A stretch of DNA of 63,284 nt, filler included, from Eubacteriales bacterium (lineage in GTDB: Bacteria > Bacillota > Clostridia > Oscillospirales > CAG-382), in assembly GCA_045636665.1 (NCBI GenBank). It is 9 parts of 9 records of this genome, joined end to end, with 100 filler letters (N's around TTAATTAATTAA, not from the genome) between each part and the next. Parts side by side here need not be neighbours in the genome. Positions count along the whole stretch, not along the records: positions 11,158 to 33,929 come from JAZTXY010000113.1; positions 34,030 to 39,016 come from JAZTXY010000114.1; 7 more parts are not named here. One strand, 5' to 3'. Below, piece by piece: positions 30,001-36,000 of the stretch; positions within the stretch are counted from its first letter, which is position 1; each line of letters begins with the position of its first letter. The position numbers are program-made.

Positions 30001-33000
30001 GAAAACGCCGTTAATAAAAAGCTGTGCCGTTCCGATATAGCTAAGCGGCGTAACGTCGTTTTGGTCTTCGGTAAAGGTGCCCAAGTCGTCAACAACACTA
30101 ACGTTTTGCGCAATTTGGCTTCTGTTGTTCGATACGGTGATAATATAAGTCAGCTCCTGCCCGATGCGGTAGCTTTCGGAAAGGGAAGACTTGTTAATGC
30201 TCAAGCTTCCGTTCAGAACCGTGCTTGTCGTATTCGAGAATGCAACCGCCGTCGCGGTTCCCGAATTATAGTTGACGGTTGCGCGGTTTGTAATTATCGT
30301 TGCCATCGGTAATCATTACTCCTTAATCGTTAATAGGGTATAAAAGCCCTTAAAACAGTATATTTACCGAATGACGAAAAAGTTAAAAGCCACGATTTTT
30401 TATCGTGGCTTTTGCGGAAACGTTTTTAATTAAGCGTCTTTTCCTTCGAAGGTGCAAAGAATATCATCTTCGTCGGTATTGAAATCTTCGAAATCGCTGA
30501 TGAATTCATCATATTCATCCAAATAAGCATCTTCTGCTGCCTTAAGCTTTTTGCGCTTCTTGAATTCGGAAACGAGCAATGCAACGCCTGCAATACCGCC
30601 AATAGCACCGAATATGCCGAACGCCTTTGCAAGATTCTTCTTCTTTTCGAGGTTAAGCAAGCAAAGTACAAAAAATGTTGCCGACTGAACGAGAAGAGAA
30701 ATGCCGATAATGGGTCTGAGTTTTTTCATGGTAAATACCTCCGAAATTATTATATGATTGTTTTTATCTTTGAAATTATTTGTTGCAGTTAAGCTTAAGA
30801 TATTCATTAATGAAATCGTCAAGCTCGCCGTCCATAACCGCTTGTATGTTACCCGTTTCACAGCCTGTGCGGTTATCCTTTACAAGGGTGTAGGGCATAA
30901 ATACGTAGGAACGGATCTGGCTGCCCCATTCGATGTTCATCTTTGTGCCGGTTATATCCTCAACACGCTCCAAGTGCTCGCGTTCCTTAATTTCAAGAAG
31001 CTTACTCTTAAGCATCTTCATTGCGGTTTCGCGGTTTTGAACCTGACTGCGTTCGGTCTGACAACCGACAACGATACCGGTGGGAATATGTGTAATACGA
31101 ATTGCCGAGTCGGTCTTGTTAACGTGCTGTCCGCCCGCGCCGCTTGCACGGTGAGCATCGATCTTCAAATCGGCTTCGTTTATTTCAATGGTGATTTCGT
31201 CATTGAATTCGGGAAGAACCTCGACAGAAGCGAATGAAGTATGTCTTCTTCCGCTCGAGTCAAACGGGGAAACGCGAACCAATCTGTGTACGCCCGATTC
31301 GCTCTTTAAATAGCCGTAAGCATTTTCGCCCTCGACCATAAAAGAAACGCTTTTAATACCCGCTTCGTCACCGTCAAGGTAATCAAGCACCTTTAGCTTA
31401 AAACCGCGCCTTGCGGCATATTGCGAATACATTCGGTAAAGCATTTGCGCCCAATCCTGCGCCTCGGTACCGCCCGCGCCGGGGTGAATCGAAATAATGG
31501 CATTACTGCCGTCATATTCACCCGAAAGAAGAATTTCAATCTTCTGTCTTTCGTATTCCTTGCGTACCGCTTCAAGATCGCTCAAAACGTCTTCGACAAC
31601 GCTGTCGTCATCCTCTTCAATAGAAAGCTCGATAAGCGTTTCAATATCGTCAAAACTGCGTCTTAACGCAAGATAGCGCTCGAGCGTACCTTTTTTGAAT
31701 TTTAATTGCTTTAAAACGACCTGAGATTCCTGCGGCTTGTCCCAAAAACCTGCTTCAGCGGTTTTGTTTTCAAGCTCTTCAACTTCTTTTTTCAACGATT
31801 CATAGCCAATAGAATCGCCAAGATCGTTAATACCTTCGCTAAGCTCGCCGAGCGAAAGCTTTGCCTGTTCCAATTGTAAAATCACGGAGCGTTCTCCTTA
31901 AATAGTTCTATTCACTTTTATTATATACACAAACTCGTATTATGTCAAGAAGTTTTAACGAAATAAAGCGAAAATGTGCAAGGCATTGTTGCATTTTCCG
32001 TACTTTTACTTTATTATTAATAAAAAAGAAAACTCAATATTAATTATTGCCAAATATTTTGAAAATTTTCGAAAAAATCGAAACCTTCAAGCGAATTTAT
32101 CGAGTAATTACAGTAAGGGTACCCAATAAGTAAAAAAGGAGTGAATATGAGTGCAGGATAAGCAAATAGTCGAGCTTTATCTTAATCGAGATGAAACTGC
32201 CATTTCCGAAACGACCGAGAAATACGGCAAATATCTGATGAAGATTGCCTTTAACATTTTGGCAAACGAGGAAGACGCAAAAGAATCCGTAAACGATACG
32301 TATCTTGCCGTCTGGGGTTCAATTCCGCCGAACGAGCCTGAAATTTTGTCGACCTATCTTGTAAAGCTTATCAGACGAATTTCTATCGACAAGCTTCGTG
32401 CCAATCATCGTCAAAAGCGTATCCCGTCCGAATATTTGGTTTCTATCGACGAGTTAAACCAAATTATTACAGACAACTCAACTCCCGAATCGAATTACGA
32501 AGCAAAGCTACTCTCGGGCTCGATCAACGCATTTGTAAAATCTTTGTCGACCGCAAACCGAAATGTTTTTATTGCGAGGTATTATTTTTTCGATTCGATA
32601 AAAGATATTTCGCAATCATTCGGTATAAGCGAATCAAAAGTAAAAAATATGCTGTTCCGTTCTCGCAAGGCGTTAAAGGAGCACTTAAGAAAGGAAGGGT
32701 TTGACGTATGAAAAAGGAAGAACTCAGCAATGCATTTGAATTCATCGATGATTCGATTATTGACGAAGTTAATAAAGCACGTAACTCTAAATCGCAACCG
32801 AAGCGCCGTAAGCTGATGCGATATATTGCATTGGCCGCTTGCTTTTGTATAATCTTTACGTCGTTGTTTTTTACAGTGCCTCTCTTCAACACTGTACACG
32901 CGCAGGATCTTATGGAGGGGATCACGCCGAATCAAGTTGAACCTATCGTTATCGATGAATATAACGAAAGAGTGACCGATTTTGCGATACGCCTTTTTAA

Positions 33001-36000
33001 AGCAAGCCAAACCGACGGCAAAAGCTCTCTCGTTTCGCCCTTGTCCGTTATGTGCGCGCTTTCGATGACGCTTAACGGTGCCGACGGAGAAACGCGTGCC
33101 CAGATGGAATCGGTTTTAGGTATGACTGCCGATGAGCTGAACAATTATATTTACAGTTATATCAATTCGTTACCCGTAAAGAATAAATACAAATTAAAGG
33201 TCGCAAACTCGATTTGGTACAGGGATAGCGAGGTATTTGTCCCCAACCGGGATTTCCTTCAAATCAATGCAGATTATTACGGCGCACAGCTTTATCAATC
33301 GGAGTTCGATTCTGGCACGCTCAAAGAGATAAACCAATGGGTCGAGCGCGAAACCGACGGAATGATACCGCAAATTCTTGATCATCTTGATGACGATTCG
33401 TTAATGGTGCTTGTTAACACGCTTGCATTCCAAGCCGATTGGGAAAAAATATACGAGAACGACGAGGTTTTCGAAAACGTATTTACTCTCGAAAACGGCA
33501 CTGAAAAAACCGTGGAATTTATGTATGACGAGCAAAATAAATATTTCGAGTCGGATAATTGCGTCGGCTTTATCAAGAATTACGTTGGCAAAAAATATGC
33601 TTTTGCAGCAATTCTTCCCGACGAGGGAATAAGTATGTCGGATTTTCTCGATACGCTTACCGGTGAAAAAATAAGCAATATGCTCTCAAACGAAAAAAAG
33701 GGAAAGGTTTTCACAAGAATACCCAAATTCAAATCAGAGTATAAAATGTATATGGCGGACACTCTGTCCGAAATGGGAATGCCCAATGCCTTCTCGCCCG
33801 AAAAGGCCGATTTCGGCTTGATGGGATCGTACGACGTCAATATCTATATCGATAACGTTATCCACAGAACCTTTATCGAGGTCAACGAAAGAGGTACGAA
33901 AGCGGGCGCTGCAACGGTGCTTCCTACACNNNNNNNNNNNNNNNNNNNNNNNNNNNNNNNNNNNNNNNNNNNNTTAATTAATTAANNNNNNNNNNNNNNN
34001 NNNNNNNNNNNNNNNNNNNNNNNNNNNNNCGATCCGACTTGGCAATTCAGGAGCGAAACCGTAAACAAAAAAGGCGGTACAATTACCGTCCTTAATAAAT
34101 AATTATAATAAAATTTTTTGAAAAAAGAGCGCGAGAGAAAGACTTTTTTAAAAGTTTTTCTCTCGCAATATAATCAAACTCTAATTATTTATTCTTCTTG
34201 CCGCCGATTTTGGTAAGAGCGTTCCAGATCATACCCGACATAAAGACGGAGGAGAAAAGACCTGCTACGATACCAACGATGAGGGGAAGCGCGAATTGGT
34301 TGATCGATTCGACACCGAGGATGTAAATCATACCGATGGTGAAAAGGGTTGTGAGGGTGGTGTTGATGCTTCTGCCGAAGGTTTCGTGGATACCGGTGTT
34401 AACGATATCGGAAAATTCGGTGCCTGCTTCAGCCTTCGCCTTGTTTTCACGGATACGGTCGAACACAACGATGGTTGCGTTGATCGAGTAACCGAGGATG
34501 GTAAGCAAAGCCGCGATAATCATCGAGTTAACGGGGATTTGAAGGAGCGAATATGCCGCAAACATAACGAAAAGGTCGTGTGCAAGACAGCAGATTGCCG
34601 CGATACCCGATTTTGCTTCGAAACGGATCCAAATGTAAACGAGCATAAGCACGATAGCTACCGCAACAGCGATGATAGCGGTTTTGGTAAGCTGGCTGCC
34701 GATGGTCGGTGCGATGGTGTTGATTTCGATATTGTTTGCATTTGCGTTGGGATATTTTGCAAGTACGGCATCTTCAAGCGCAACGGTTTGTTCGGTGGTG
34801 AGCGCCGCGGTACCGGTACGGATGATTGCCATATTGATGTTGTCGGTCGATTGGGTGGTGGAGGAAACGTAATCGTTACCCAATTTTTCGTGATTTCTGA
34901 TAATATTGTTAATATCGTCACAAACCTCTTGGGTTACCTCGGTTCCGAGGTCGATTTTGATTTCGGTACCGCCCGAAAAGTCGATATCGATATTAAAGCC
35001 TCTTACGAAGAAGGAAACAAGACCGATAAGGATTACGAGTGCTACAACGCAAAGCGTTACTTTTTGGTTTTTAATAAAGTGAAACTTGCTCATTATTTAG
35101 CTCTCCTTCCCAACGATCTGTATTTTTTAGGTTCGGTGATGCCCATACCGATACCAAGATTAAGAAGTGCCTTGGTGATAATCAATGCGGTAAAGAGCGA
35201 GATAACGATACCGATAAAGAGGGTAGATGCGAAGCCCTTGATGGTACCCGAACCGAGGAAGTAAAGCACCGCACACGCGATGATTGTGGTAACGTTCGAG
35301 TCGAGAATTGCCGAGAAAGCTCTCTTGAAGCCTGCCTTAACAGCCGCCTTTGCGCTCTTGCCGAGGTCGATTTCTTCCTTAATACGTTCGAAGATGACAA
35401 CGTTTGCGTCAACCGCCATACCGATCGAAAGGAAGATACCTGCGATACCTGCAAGGGTAAGGTTGGTGCCGAAGATAACGATAACAAGACCGTAAATACC
35501 GATGTAAGCGATAAGAGCGATCGATGCCATTACGCCGGGAACCTTATAATAGATGCAGAGGAAAACGAGAACCAAAAGAACGCCGATTGCACCTGCGATA
35601 AGCGAGGTGGAAAGCGAATCTTCACCAAGAGTTGCGCCAACGGTTCTTTGTTCAACGGTTTCAAGCTCGTAACGGAACGCACCTGCGTTAATGTTGTTCG
35701 CAAGGGCAGAAGCCGATTCATAAGTGAAGTTACCGGTGATGATTGCTTCGCCGGTGGTGATTGCTTCGTTAACGGTGGGTTCGCTGATCATAACGCCGTC
35801 GATATAAATACCGATGGTTTCTTTGTTAGCTGCTGCTTTTGTGGTAGCAGTTGCAAACTTCTGTGCGCCTTCATCGGTAAGAGTAAGCGAAACCGCATAT
35901 TCATATTTACCTTCGGAAACCTGGAAGCTGCCGCCCAAAGCGGATTCAACGTGTTCACCTTCAAGAACAACTGCGCCGCTTTTATCCTTGAATTGGAGCT

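Follow-up and report, generated by a model that had tools for sequence, protein, structure and literature searches.

A membrane-tethered serpin fused to an ECF sigma-factor partner: a candidate protease-sensing anti-sigma factor

We describe a gene pair from a gut-type Clostridia bacterium (Eubacteriales, assembly GCA_045636665.1) in which an ECF sigma factor gene is followed by a gene for a partner protein of unusual build: a cytoplasmic module of 37 residues leads through a single transmembrane helix to a serpin of the inhibitory type, an assignment that is well supported. The pair lies in the window (the whole stretch of 63,284 nucleotides that was analysed); how its genes are built, which domains they encode, how far the pair is conserved, that it recurs and that it has a promoter motif can all be read directly from the genomes. 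We propose, with a probability of about one half, that the partner is a protease-sensing anti-sigma factor that holds out a membrane-tethered inhibitory serpin as protease bait. If this is true, a cell could detect attacking proteases directly, by means of a serpin-bearing anti-sigma factor.

The sigma gene and its single-pass partner

The sigma gene (32151-32711, plus strand) starts with GTG, 9 nt downstream of a ribosome-binding site, AAGGAG (32136-32141, plus strand), that we located by direct reading of the sequence. Its 186-residue product matches Sigma70_r2 (3.2e-8), Sigma70_r4_2 (5.9e-9) and Sigma70_ECF (4.2e-6) in Pfam, and TIGR02937 (sigma70-ECF, 1.5e-21) in NCBIfam. Among solved structures, SigW (5wuq, 1.1e-11) is the nearest relative, and CnrH (4cxf, 1.4e-4) is a further one; D80-x-x-R83 is invariant in 15 orthologues. 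A candidate autoregulated ECF-type promoter, GAAACC-N15-CGAGTA (32080-32106, plus strand), is positioned 45 nt 5' of the sigma start: this motif is kept ahead of sigma orthologues from both genera, with a spacer of varying sequence, and the promoters of paralogous sigma genes in this genome are different. A second genomic copy lies 5' of a gene for a 577-aa membrane protein, and the motif also precedes the orthologous gene in genome G019.

The partner gene (32708-33928, plus strand) begins with an ATG that shares the sequence ATGA, a 4-nt overlap, with the sigma stop codon. Its frame stays open up to 33928, where the final complete codon closes; with the contig ending at 33929, ahead of a run of N, 407 residues are visible and the copy in the window is short of about 42 at its C-terminus. 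There is one hydrophobic segment, at about residues 38-60; nine K/R residues lie ahead of it, and a single one lies within the 30 residues that follow. This hydropathy peak and the positive-inside charges predict a single transmembrane helix containing an AACFC motif (residues 38-60; 32819-32887, plus strand), and an AlphaFold2 model places the helix at 32-56. The first-pass annotation had described an upstream ECF sigma factor and a translationally coupled partner, single-pass and N-in/C-out, with an inhibitory-type serpin as its outer domain; the Pfam and TIGR02937 matches, the ATGA overlap, the predicted topology, and a PF00079 match with its hinge (see below) bear out this description.

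Residues 1-37 of the partner (32708-32818, plus strand), with an IDDxxI motif, are predicted to be a cytoplasmic sigma-binding module on the strength of a profile family, paralogous loci and complex prediction. A profile search with the module collected 2596 representative proteins, nearly all of them aligned from residue 1. The claim that other sigma partners of this genome share the module was also correct: it recurs on contigs C72 and C117, downstream of sigma paralogues, and those module genes likewise have the 4-nt overlap. Prediction of the module-sigma complex gave an ipSAE of 0.85 in three runs (best control, 0.02), a score that may partly reflect memory because sigma/anti-sigma complexes are abundant among solved structures; the same mark was attained by 116 of 157 complexes of known structure and by 2 of 215 mismatched pairs. 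The runs had at least 88% of their contacts in common and a partner pLDDT of at least 73, and the predicted contacts involve sigma residues 64-76 and 117-157. The clamp between sigma regions 2 and 4 that had been predicted at first pass is supported by this prediction and its controls, and we take it as the predicted mode of binding.

The serpin domain and its recurrence beside sigma factors

The portion of the serpin domain that is on the contig (residues 89-403; 32972-33916, plus strand) matches PF00079 at 1.9e-75. Its closest solved relative is tengpin from Thermoanaerobacter tengcongensis (PDB: 2pee, 2pef, 2vh4): a full-length orthologue of the partner, P0003 (98% identical), matches 2pee at 8.3e-110, and Foldseek returns a TM-score of 0.92 (normalised to the target) with 45-47% identity. 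The visible sequence finishes in the reactive-centre-loop hinge, ERGTKAGAATVLPT, where sequence reading and orthologue comparison place ERGTKAGAAT (P17-P8) and VLPT immediately before the contig end (33887-33928, plus strand). Past the hinge, orthologues P0003-P0008 have variants of ..PTLGI[TD].. and total lengths of 445-450 aa. Twenty further protein clusters (445-453 aa) cover 100% of the fusion query; the hinge E-x-G-T-x-A-G-A-A/V-T is found in 18 of 20 fusion clusters, the other two starting with Y-T, and the distal reactive loop is hypervariable among these clusters, even between close relatives.

The juxtamembrane linker (residues 61-78; 32888-32941, plus strand) contains a V63-H64-A65 motif and then, by alignment with tengpin, a latch of the tengpin type, DLMEGITPNQVE: partner residues 64-78 align with tengpin 37-51 (peptide ANLMDRIKANPVS). 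According to the tengpin paper, the 37-51 peptide traps the native state of that serpin, a proven inhibitor of leucocyte elastase, and strand s1A occupies the latch site after the stressed-to-relaxed transition. In 28 sequences, A65 and M69 of the latch are invariant and L68 is conserved in at least 90%. Lipoprotein serpins without the module conserve both this latch and the V-x-A motif to the same degree, and neither feature is specialised for signalling. The AlphaFold2 model of the serpin is relaxed-like, nearer to latent than to native tengpin, and is therefore uninformative on latch docking.

Our search of 60 other genomes of the genus together with this one found the full-length fusion in 11 genomes, and in 11 of 11 loci the sigma gene stands upstream with the 4-nt overlap; since that overlap is kept at protein identities of 49-98%, the arrangement is more than chance. 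The same pair had been noted in genome G040 (L006), and we find it there as described (sigma 53% identical, fusion 55% identical over residues 1-405, 451 aa), with the reactive loop GTKAGAATVVEMDNEGAY. Also as described, the sigma gene in G069, G070, G074 and G076 is followed by a module protein (221 aa in G074) and then by a separate serpin, so that fusion and neighbour arrangements both exist. The order in G068 is the same; in this set, which includes G068, the module proteins have 215-248 aa and the separate serpins a lipobox-type N-terminus. Altogether, a separate lipobox-type serpin gene is present at 11 neighbour-type loci and on contig C5 of this genome; in these loci it stands behind an anti-sigma-like protein with a small outer domain of its own.

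At least three serpin-module fusions are independent, and the serpin fusions involve two unrelated N-terminal modules. No other Pfam domain is as frequent among the module proteins as Serpin, which 10 of the top 150 carry. Of the best 30 serpin loci in the bacterial family, 23 are in operons of an ECF sigma factor and a single-pass partner. A parallel is provided by alpha-2-macroglobulin, an unrelated but mechanistically similar protease trap that has the same single-pass layout as the serpin partner: single-pass alpha-2-macroglobulin proteins are encoded behind an ECF sigma gene at all 12 loci examined in the bacterial order, and Pfam recognises both the sigma and the A2M bait-region domains in four of four pairs tested.

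Proposed protease sensing and competing explanations

We infer that the serpin is the sensor, and with it the latch release, proteolytic processing, regulon and target protease of the following scheme; the sensor role is strengthened by the independent fusions, the sigma/alpha-2-macroglobulin pairing and the juxtamembrane position of the tengpin-type latch. At rest, the 37-residue module would grip the sigma factor between regions 2 and 4, as predicted. The trigger would be an extracellular serine protease that cuts into the reactive-centre loop: the serpin would capture this protease and pass from its stressed to its relaxed form, and strand s1A would take the docking place of the N-terminal latch, as in tengpin. 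The latch (residues 64-78), which starts four residues past the membrane helix, would then be let go, exposing a juxtamembrane linker that includes V63-H64-A65, a motif similar to a signal-peptidase site. We speculate that protease trapping leads in this way to site-1 cleavage; an intramembrane cut by a site-2 protease, for which the genome encodes a candidate (Peptidase_M50), would follow, the cytoplasmic module would be lost and the sigma factor would be free, by a route as in RsiV. Once released, the sigma factor would drive transcription of its own operon, from GAAACC-N15-CGAGTA, and of at least one further gene. One consumed inhibitor would equal one sigma molecule freed, and by transcription of the operon each consumed inhibitor would fund its own replacement at the surface. 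Two points count against this scheme: a trapped protease remains covalently bound and makes the outer domain larger, and the predicted regulon includes no protease gene.

It is possible, if somewhat doubtful, that sigma factor and partner are a true sigma/anti-sigma pair in which the serpin is only cargo, a surface protease shield merged with the adjoining anti-sigma gene; the sigma factor would then be freed by another cue (envelope stress or general anti-sigma turnover) and the conformational change of the serpin would not be involved. A serpin that is a mere regulated product fits the neighbour arrangement equally well, and two genes could simply have merged, without any sensing, to give the fusion: in genus g5 and in a second sigma system the operon carries the serpin as a gene of its own, downstream and with a lipobox-type N-terminus, the typical position of an ECF target gene; the fusion junction falls exactly at the expected site of a lipoprotein signal peptide, as for a simple merger; and unfused serpins conserve the latch just as well. 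Such a merger is harder to reconcile with at least three fusion origins on two unrelated N-terminal modules, or with the alpha-2-macroglobulin partners of the same layout at 12 of 12 loci. Furthermore, the fusion puts the serpin in place of the anti-sigma factor's entire outer domain, and without serpin sensing no other sensing domain would be left.

We consider it unlikely that the serpin is a brake that inhibits the site-1 protease of the anti-sigma factor and keeps the system off until it is exhausted or bypassed, its target being a processing or surface protease of the cell itself and not a foreign one. This explanation could draw on two very large S8 subtilisin-like proteins encoded in the genome, given that serpins can inhibit subtilases (PinA of C. 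thermocellum inhibits subtilisin, according to a review), and on the strong differences between the reactive loops of close relatives. However, none of the loci examined has a linked protease gene. In comparable Firmicute systems, signal peptidase is one of the proteases known to make the site-1 cut, and it is not known as a classical target of serpins.

That the module is no anti-sigma domain but only a signal anchor, with a serpin that is simply co-transcribed with the sigma factor, is very improbable: the cytoplasmic part is short (about 37 residues) and matches no curated anti-sigma family in Pfam or NCBIfam, but the module is conserved in 2596 representatives, an anchor has no need of an acidic IDDxxI helix, the module stands behind paralogous sigma genes with the 4-nt overlap, the complex prediction passes its controls, and Thermoanaerobacter offers an experimental precedent in which the N-terminal anti-sigma domain is likewise short.

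Comparison with known systems

The literature searched yielded no publication on a serpin-bearing anti-sigma partner. What we regard as new are the separate joinings of serpin and module (at least three), the 23 of 30 serpin loci in ECF sigma operons, the alpha-2-macroglobulin genes behind sigma genes (12 of 12), the tengpin latch match right after the membrane helix, and the conserved ECF-type promoter of the sigma gene. In class II (CnrY/NepR-like) minimal anti-sigma domains, a short helical peptide lies between sigma regions 2 and 4; the predicted clamp of our module resembles these by description. Bifidobacterium breve, another gut bacterium in which serpin synthesis is tied to a signal system of its own, reportedly has a protease-inducible serpin operon under a two-component system, in which a histidine kinase is the sensor and the serpin only the product; here, by contrast, the regulator itself contains the serpin.

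Clostridium thermocellum has paralogous pairs of SigI and the single-pass anti-sigma factor RsgI, whose interchangeable outer domains set the signal. The likeness is a paralogous set of sigma factors and single-pass partners in Clostridia, and the differences are SigI-type factors, an RsgI_N domain and a polysaccharide signal there, as opposed to ECF factors, another module and a proposed protease signal here. The Tt-RpoE1/Tt-TolB system of T. tengcongensis comes closer in layout: the work on this member of the Clostridia describes an ECF sigma gene followed by the gene for a single-pass protein (helix 39-61) that, by experiment, uses a short N-terminal domain to bind and inhibit the sigma factor, an autoregulated promoter defined experimentally as tGTTAC-N16-CGTC, and a region 2.4 DXXR that reads the -10 element. 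Our partner has its helix at 38-60, a promoter of the same type and the invariant D80-x-x-R83; Tt-TolB differs in an outer domain annotated as TolB-like, and the likeness of the modules is one of layout, by description.

RsiV, of the SigV/RsiV systems of Bacillus subtilis and Clostridioides difficile, is a single-pass Firmicute ECF anti-sigma factor whose outer domain binds host lysozyme; a conformational change near the membrane has to take place before signal peptidase can make the site-1 cut, and the site-2 cut comes next. The partner resembles RsiV in that its transmembrane and juxtamembrane region (residues 32-64) weakly matches DUF4179 (17 bits, below the Pfam cut-off of 30.1), and in the V-H-A motif five residues beyond the helix. 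In contrast to the lysozyme-binding fold of RsiV, its outer domain is a serpin, which would trap its ligand covalently and be consumed as a receptor, and the cleavage that we propose for it is inferred only. With tengpin, finally, it shares the N-terminal latch motif A-x-x-L-M ... N-x-V, a stabiliser of the metastable native state. The tengpin paper describes no link to a sigma factor, and its characterisation starts after the first 31 residues; unlike in tengpin, the latch of our partner stands only a few residues from a transmembrane helix and a predicted sigma-binding module.

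Gene pair and candidate promoter

The source assembly is a draft genome (1.82 Mb, 139 contigs, 80% complete), and its contig C113 occupies positions 11158-33929 of the window. Close to that end lies an ECF sigma gene (32151-32711, + strand; GTG start, 186 aa), with the ribosome-binding site AAGGAG 9 nt upstream. The encoded protein matches the Pfam models Sigma70_r2 (residues 23-87), r4_2 (residues 128-175 of 186) and Sigma70_ECF, and scores 76.8 bits against NCBIfam TIGR02937 (cut-off 42.9). It has regions 2 and 4 only, as befits an ECF (group IV) sigma-70 factor; the nearest solved relative of a 15-member sigma alignment is SigW (5wuq, 1.1e-11), with CnrH among those listed.

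The gene for the partner protein runs from 32708 (+) to the contig's last codon as an open frame, 407 residues of which are seen; because it begins at 32708, its ATG overlaps the sigma stop codon. Residues 1-37 (the ‘module’) are hydrophilic and helical, and carry the motif FEFIDDSIIDEV. They are followed by a single hydrophobic segment (38-60), with nine K/R residues before it and one in the 30 residues after, a distribution that predicts an N-in, C-out topology; hydropathy thus points to one transmembrane helix, placed at 32-56 in the structural model. The outer part is a serpin domain (PF00079, residues 89-403, 1.9e-75) that terminates in the hinge ERGTKAGAATVLPT. Since gene structure, domain hits and transmembrane prediction all agree with it, the first-pass annotation of a sigma factor followed by a membrane partner with an outer serpin is correct as written. 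Positions 33930-34029 of the window are an N run containing an artificial spacer (TTAATTAATTAA, 33974-33985) whose stop codons cover every frame; 34030 is the first position of the following contig. The extension of the serpin frame across the Ns to 33985 in the ORF list is an artefact.

Upstream of the sigma gene, at 32080-32106 (+), lies a candidate ECF promoter, GAAACC-N15-CGAGTA. The motif is conserved in both the window's genus and a second genus of the family (g5), as GAAACC or CAGACC, a variable spacer of 15-16 nt, and CGAGTA, CGATA or CGGTA; promoters of the paralogous sigma genes differ from it. With its AAC-type -35 and CG-containing -10 elements (GAAACC-N15-CG(A/G)(G/T)TA), it appears to be a promoter of the autoregulated type. 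It is also of the same type as the mapped promoter of Tt-RpoE1, an ECF sigma factor of Thermoanaerobacter tengcongensis, in which a D-x-x-R motif reads the -10 element; the corresponding D80-x-x-R83 is invariant among the sigma orthologues studied here.

A genome scan with the strict promoter pattern returned 26 sites, only three of them with CGAGTA. One other intergenic copy of GAAACC-N15-CGAGTA was found, on contig C22 (8377-8403, +), 33 nt before the gene of a 577-aa single-pass protein with YDENG-like repeats and no Pfam match (8377-10169, +, motif included). Its orthologue in genome G019 (46% identical) is likewise preceded by the motif, at the corresponding position but with another spacer. 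Genomes G040, G013 and G074 gave no match to this protein at E <= 1e-10, and G008 gave a weak partial match with no motif correctly placed before the start. We regard the C22 gene as a candidate member of the regulon, a prediction that rests on two genomes. We discounted another C22 site (427-452, -), which falls where an open frame ends and has no convincing gene behind it.

The N-terminal module

With a profile of the module we recovered further partners in the same genome, on contigs C72 and C117, encoded immediately downstream of paralogous ECF sigma genes; their outer domains (about 440 and 770 residues) are unrelated. This bears out the earlier proposal that the module is common to other sigma partners of this genome. 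Sigma genes paired with single-pass partners are also present on C11, C91 and C16. Across 1.84 billion representative proteins, the profile matched 2596 at E <= 1e-3 and 113 at E <= 1e-10, the matches beginning at residue 1 in almost all; a word-based search with residues 1-62 had yielded only 4 close relatives, and the exhaustive profile search was used instead. No curated anti-sigma family in Pfam or NCBIfam matched the module. Two established types were considered and rejected: the class I anti-sigma domain, for which curated models describe about 80 helical residues (no family match; about 37 cytoplasmic residues with two short helices here), and the DUF4179/RsiV type, for which PF13786 reached 17.0 bits against a cut-off of 30.1, over the helix and at profile positions 1-34 of 94 only.

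We modelled the sigma factor together with partner residues 1-38, each supplied as a 15-row alignment, in three runs with three controls. The predicted complex scored an ipSAE of 0.85 in three runs, with 0.02 for the best control; among solved complexes 116 of 157 attain the 0.85 mark, among mismatched pairs 2 of 215, and such a score is support for binding and no proof of it, as solved sigma/anti-sigma complexes may be remembered by the predictor. At least 88% of contacts agree between runs, and the partner's pLDDT is at least 73. Predicted contacts join partner residues 1-29 to sigma residues 64-76 (region 2), 99-107 and 117-157 (region 4), in keeping with the first-pass view of a module held between regions 2 and 4. 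An independent precedent comes from Thermoanaerobacter, where experiments showed that a single-pass protein encoded directly behind an ECF sigma gene inhibits that factor by way of its N-terminal domain; its helix spans residues 39-61, compared with 38-60 here. The module is accordingly placed like an anti-sigma domain and is predicted to behave as one by binding the sigma factor.

The serpin and its recurrence behind sigma genes

A search of 5.8 billion proteins placed the fusion in 20 clusters (445-453 aa, whole query covered, 47-98% identity). The numerous remaining matches are serpins of about 418 aa whose alignment begins at query residues 30-65, so that the ordinary serpins do lack the module, as had been stated; at the place of the fusions' module and helix they have a lipoprotein-type signal peptide with a lipobox Cys. 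The segment V-x-A-x-D-L-M-E-G-I-T-P-N is common to the fusions and these shorter lipoprotein serpins. A serpin is present in 87 of 164 genomes of the family, and matches that start at residue 1 are confined to the window's genus (11 genomes, including this one). All 11 have the orthologous sigma gene immediately before the fusion gene and keep the 4-nt overlap, which is also seen between the sigma and module genes in 5/5 three-gene loci of g5. The fusion loci are flanked by prfB and the RNase P RNA gene; a single-protein scan for related loci returned only two public ones, 98% identical. Downstream of the 98% identical fusion gene of L031 (4391-4738, -), an RNA of the bacterial RNase P class A type (262 bits) stands between that gene and a murD-like gene, a region lost at the contig break in the window.

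The serpin fold is supported by a match to tengpin, a serpin of Thermoanaerobacter tengcongensis (8.3e-110), and by Foldseek (45-47% identity; TM-score 0.92, normalised to the target). Inhibitory serpins share a hinge consensus of Glu at P17, Gly at P15, Thr or Ser at P14 and small residues at P12-P9. The window's hinge, ERGTKAGAAT, fits it; 18 of the 20 fusion clusters read E-x-G-T-x-A-G-A-A/V-T, and two have a Y-T start. Past P8 the loop is hypervariable. Judged by its hinge, the partner serpin looks inhibitory. Because the contig ends at 33929, the window copy lacks the full reactive-centre loop and the C-terminal strands s1C, s4B and s5B, all of which are present in five full-length orthologues (P0003, L002, L003, L031 and L032; 449 aa, 98% identical). 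Canonical counting would put Ile at P1 in the close orthologues; as loop lengths differ from those of alpha-1-antitrypsin and the sequence VVEM is common to many relatives, we dropped this assignment and claim no target specificity.

A further observation concerns the stretch next to the membrane (residues 64-78, the ‘latch’). The HMMER alignment with tengpin begins at partner residue 64 (HAQDLMEGITPNQVE, against QAANLMDRIKANPVS in tengpin), four residues past the membrane helix. V63-H64-A65, five residues past the hydrophobic segment and with A65 invariant, fits the small-x-small rule for signal peptidase. Published work on tengpin shows that its metastable native state is trapped by this peptide (residues 39-51 there), with N40, L41 and M42 as the key positions, and that Q37 and A38 pack on helix F. 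The first three align with D67-L68-M69 of the partner, of which M69 is invariant and L68 at least 90% conserved; the partner thus appears to belong with tengpin-type serpins that have an N-terminal latch motif. An AlphaFold2 model of a full-length orthologue (mean pLDDT 77) adopts a relaxed-like state that resembles latent tengpin (rmsd 3.0) more than the native form (rmsd 8.1); it was therefore left out of judging latch docking, and is uninformative on mechanism.

Fusion to a serpin has arisen repeatedly. Among the best 150 of the 2596 module-family members, Serpin is the only frequent Pfam domain (10/150, three of them fragments); one protein of 1592 aa has alpha-2-macroglobulin domains including the bait region, another has choline-binding repeats, and the majority match nothing in Pfam. 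A quick maximum-likelihood tree of 52 serpin domains, in which several forks lack resolution and long branches are flagged, separates three groups: fusions of the window's type (13 form a clade with support 95, and a further pair lacks a resolved position); six fusions in a very distant serpin clade with the hinge EEGC.AAA[FY]T (support 100); and a fusion to a different module, nested among lipoprotein serpins. These three groups argue for at least three independent fusions.

The same genome also contains a second sigma-serpin system outside the window, on C5 (925-3817, -). Here the gene of an unrelated ECF sigma factor (182 aa, starting MDNGA.SYRRF...) overlaps by 4 nt that of a single-pass protein (223 aa) whose N-terminal module is a different one (MRDFNEIKAEIIRRS; pattern M..LNEYKAEI.RRSE), and a third gene encodes a 553-aa serpin with a lipoprotein-type N-terminus and a Big_14 domain. 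This arrangement recurs in six loci of relatives, and L017 has a direct fusion of the second module to a serpin. We took a census of serpin loci in the family, using the best 30, each from a different genome; related genomes are not independent samples. The first sigma type precedes a module-serpin fusion in 11/30 and, in g5, a module protein and then a serpin in 5/30; the second precedes a module protein and serpin in 6/30 and a fusion in 1/30. The remaining 7/30 have no sigma gene within about 1.5 kb by two sigma queries; sigma-linked loci thus number 23 of 30. In the g5 loci (L014, L018, L020, L021 and L030), the module proteins combine an acidic linker rich in proline with a conserved C-terminal domain (about 60 residues, no Pfam match), and the serpins extend about 130-160 residues beyond the Pfam match at the C-terminus.

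Serpins and alpha-2-macroglobulins have unrelated folds, and in both, cleavage of a bait loop triggers a large conformational change. In protein P0201 (1592 aa), the IDDxxI module and an AA(C/S)FC helix as in the serpin fusion are joined to an alpha-2-macroglobulin that includes the bait region and is without the CxEQ thioester motif. A search with the alpha-2-macroglobulin fusion as query found matches in 52 of 401 genomes of the order and in none of 26 genomes of the window's own family. An ECF-like sigma gene lies directly upstream in all 12 loci examined (L047-L058, 12 genomes; for example L048:643-6090, L049:1126-6678 and L053:838-6381). These proteins of about 1520-1670 aa have a cytoplasmic segment of 40-50 residues, one helix, and the domains Big_5, MG2, A2M bait-region and A2M; in 4/4 tested pairs, Pfam matches bear out both the sigma regions 2 and 4 and the bait-region domain. 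At least three different N-terminal segments occur among the alpha-2-macroglobulin proteins behind sigma genes.

Proposed protease sensing and known systems

Beyond the observed architecture, conservation, recurrence and promoter motif, we propose, at a probability of about one half, that the partner is a protease-sensing serpin anti-sigma factor. A serine protease would cut the reactive loop and the serpin would relax; the latch would be expelled, as tengpin structures suggest; the juxtamembrane linker with its V-H-A motif would become accessible; and site-1, then site-2 cleavage would set the sigma factor free. The circuit could then act as a consumption-coupled homeostat, in which one trapped protease yields one free sigma molecule and the shield is renewed. 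As a candidate site-2 protease, the genome contains a Peptidase_M50 gene (C43:3887-4873, 190 bits). Peptidase_S8 domains lie in open frames of 2399 and 1810 aa on C11 (20111-21505, -) and C14 (30809-31552, +); these subtilisin-like proteins are possible endogenous serpin targets, and C11 also has a paralogous sigma/partner pair about 5 kb from its Peptidase_S8 frame.

We count against this mechanism that a trapped protease stays attached to the serpin. The strongest competitor, in our estimate rather unlikely, is that the serpin is cargo only and senses nothing: a separate neighbouring serpin gene, as in g5, fits a serpin that is a mere product, and the latch is conserved equally in unfused serpins. 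We give little credence to the serpin as a brake on the processing protease. That the partner is not an anti-sigma factor at all seems very improbable beside the predicted sigma complex.

More tentatively than protease sensing by this partner, we suggest that gut-type Clostridia have a general class of ‘suicide-receptor’ anti-sigma factors, in which serpin and alpha-2-macroglobulin traps have time and again come to serve as the outer domain. Cleavage of the bait by a foreign or host protease would lead to sigma release and trap resynthesis, molecule by molecule. In the serpin version, the membrane-adjacent latch would be the switch: loop insertion would expel it and unmask a cleavage site.

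ECF sigma/anti-sigma pairs are a major bacterial signalling device, and to our knowledge the signal is not known for most ECF groups. Here the partner's outer domain itself names a likely one, an active serine protease, and the proposed mechanism is within reach of standard reporter assays and commercially available proteases. If true, this would be the first bacterial receptor to signal via the serpin stressed-to-relaxed transition; it would widen serpin biology from inhibition to bacterial transmembrane signalling, explain the frequent tie of the family's serpin genes to sigma factors, and connect serpins with the parallel sigma/alpha-2-macroglobulin architecture. According to a review, gut Clostridia have serpins that inhibit host proteases linked to gut inflammation; a protease-responsive serpin circuit therefore bears on host-microbe interaction, and might also be engineered as a modular protease biosensor.

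The literature searched yielded no description of a serpin or alpha-2-macroglobulin domain in an anti-sigma factor, and no publication that links protease sensing to anti-sigma factors; the main text of the ECF reclassification paper mentions neither ‘serpin’ nor ‘macroglobulin’, and its supplements may list domain architectures. An ECF sigma factor with a single-pass anti-sigma factor is a known frame; what is new is the class of outer domain, together with the signalling principle proposed here. The closest worked example for the partner's proposed route is RsiV, the lysozyme-receptor anti-sigma factor: signal peptidase cuts RsiV only once lysozyme binding has altered its juxtamembrane region.
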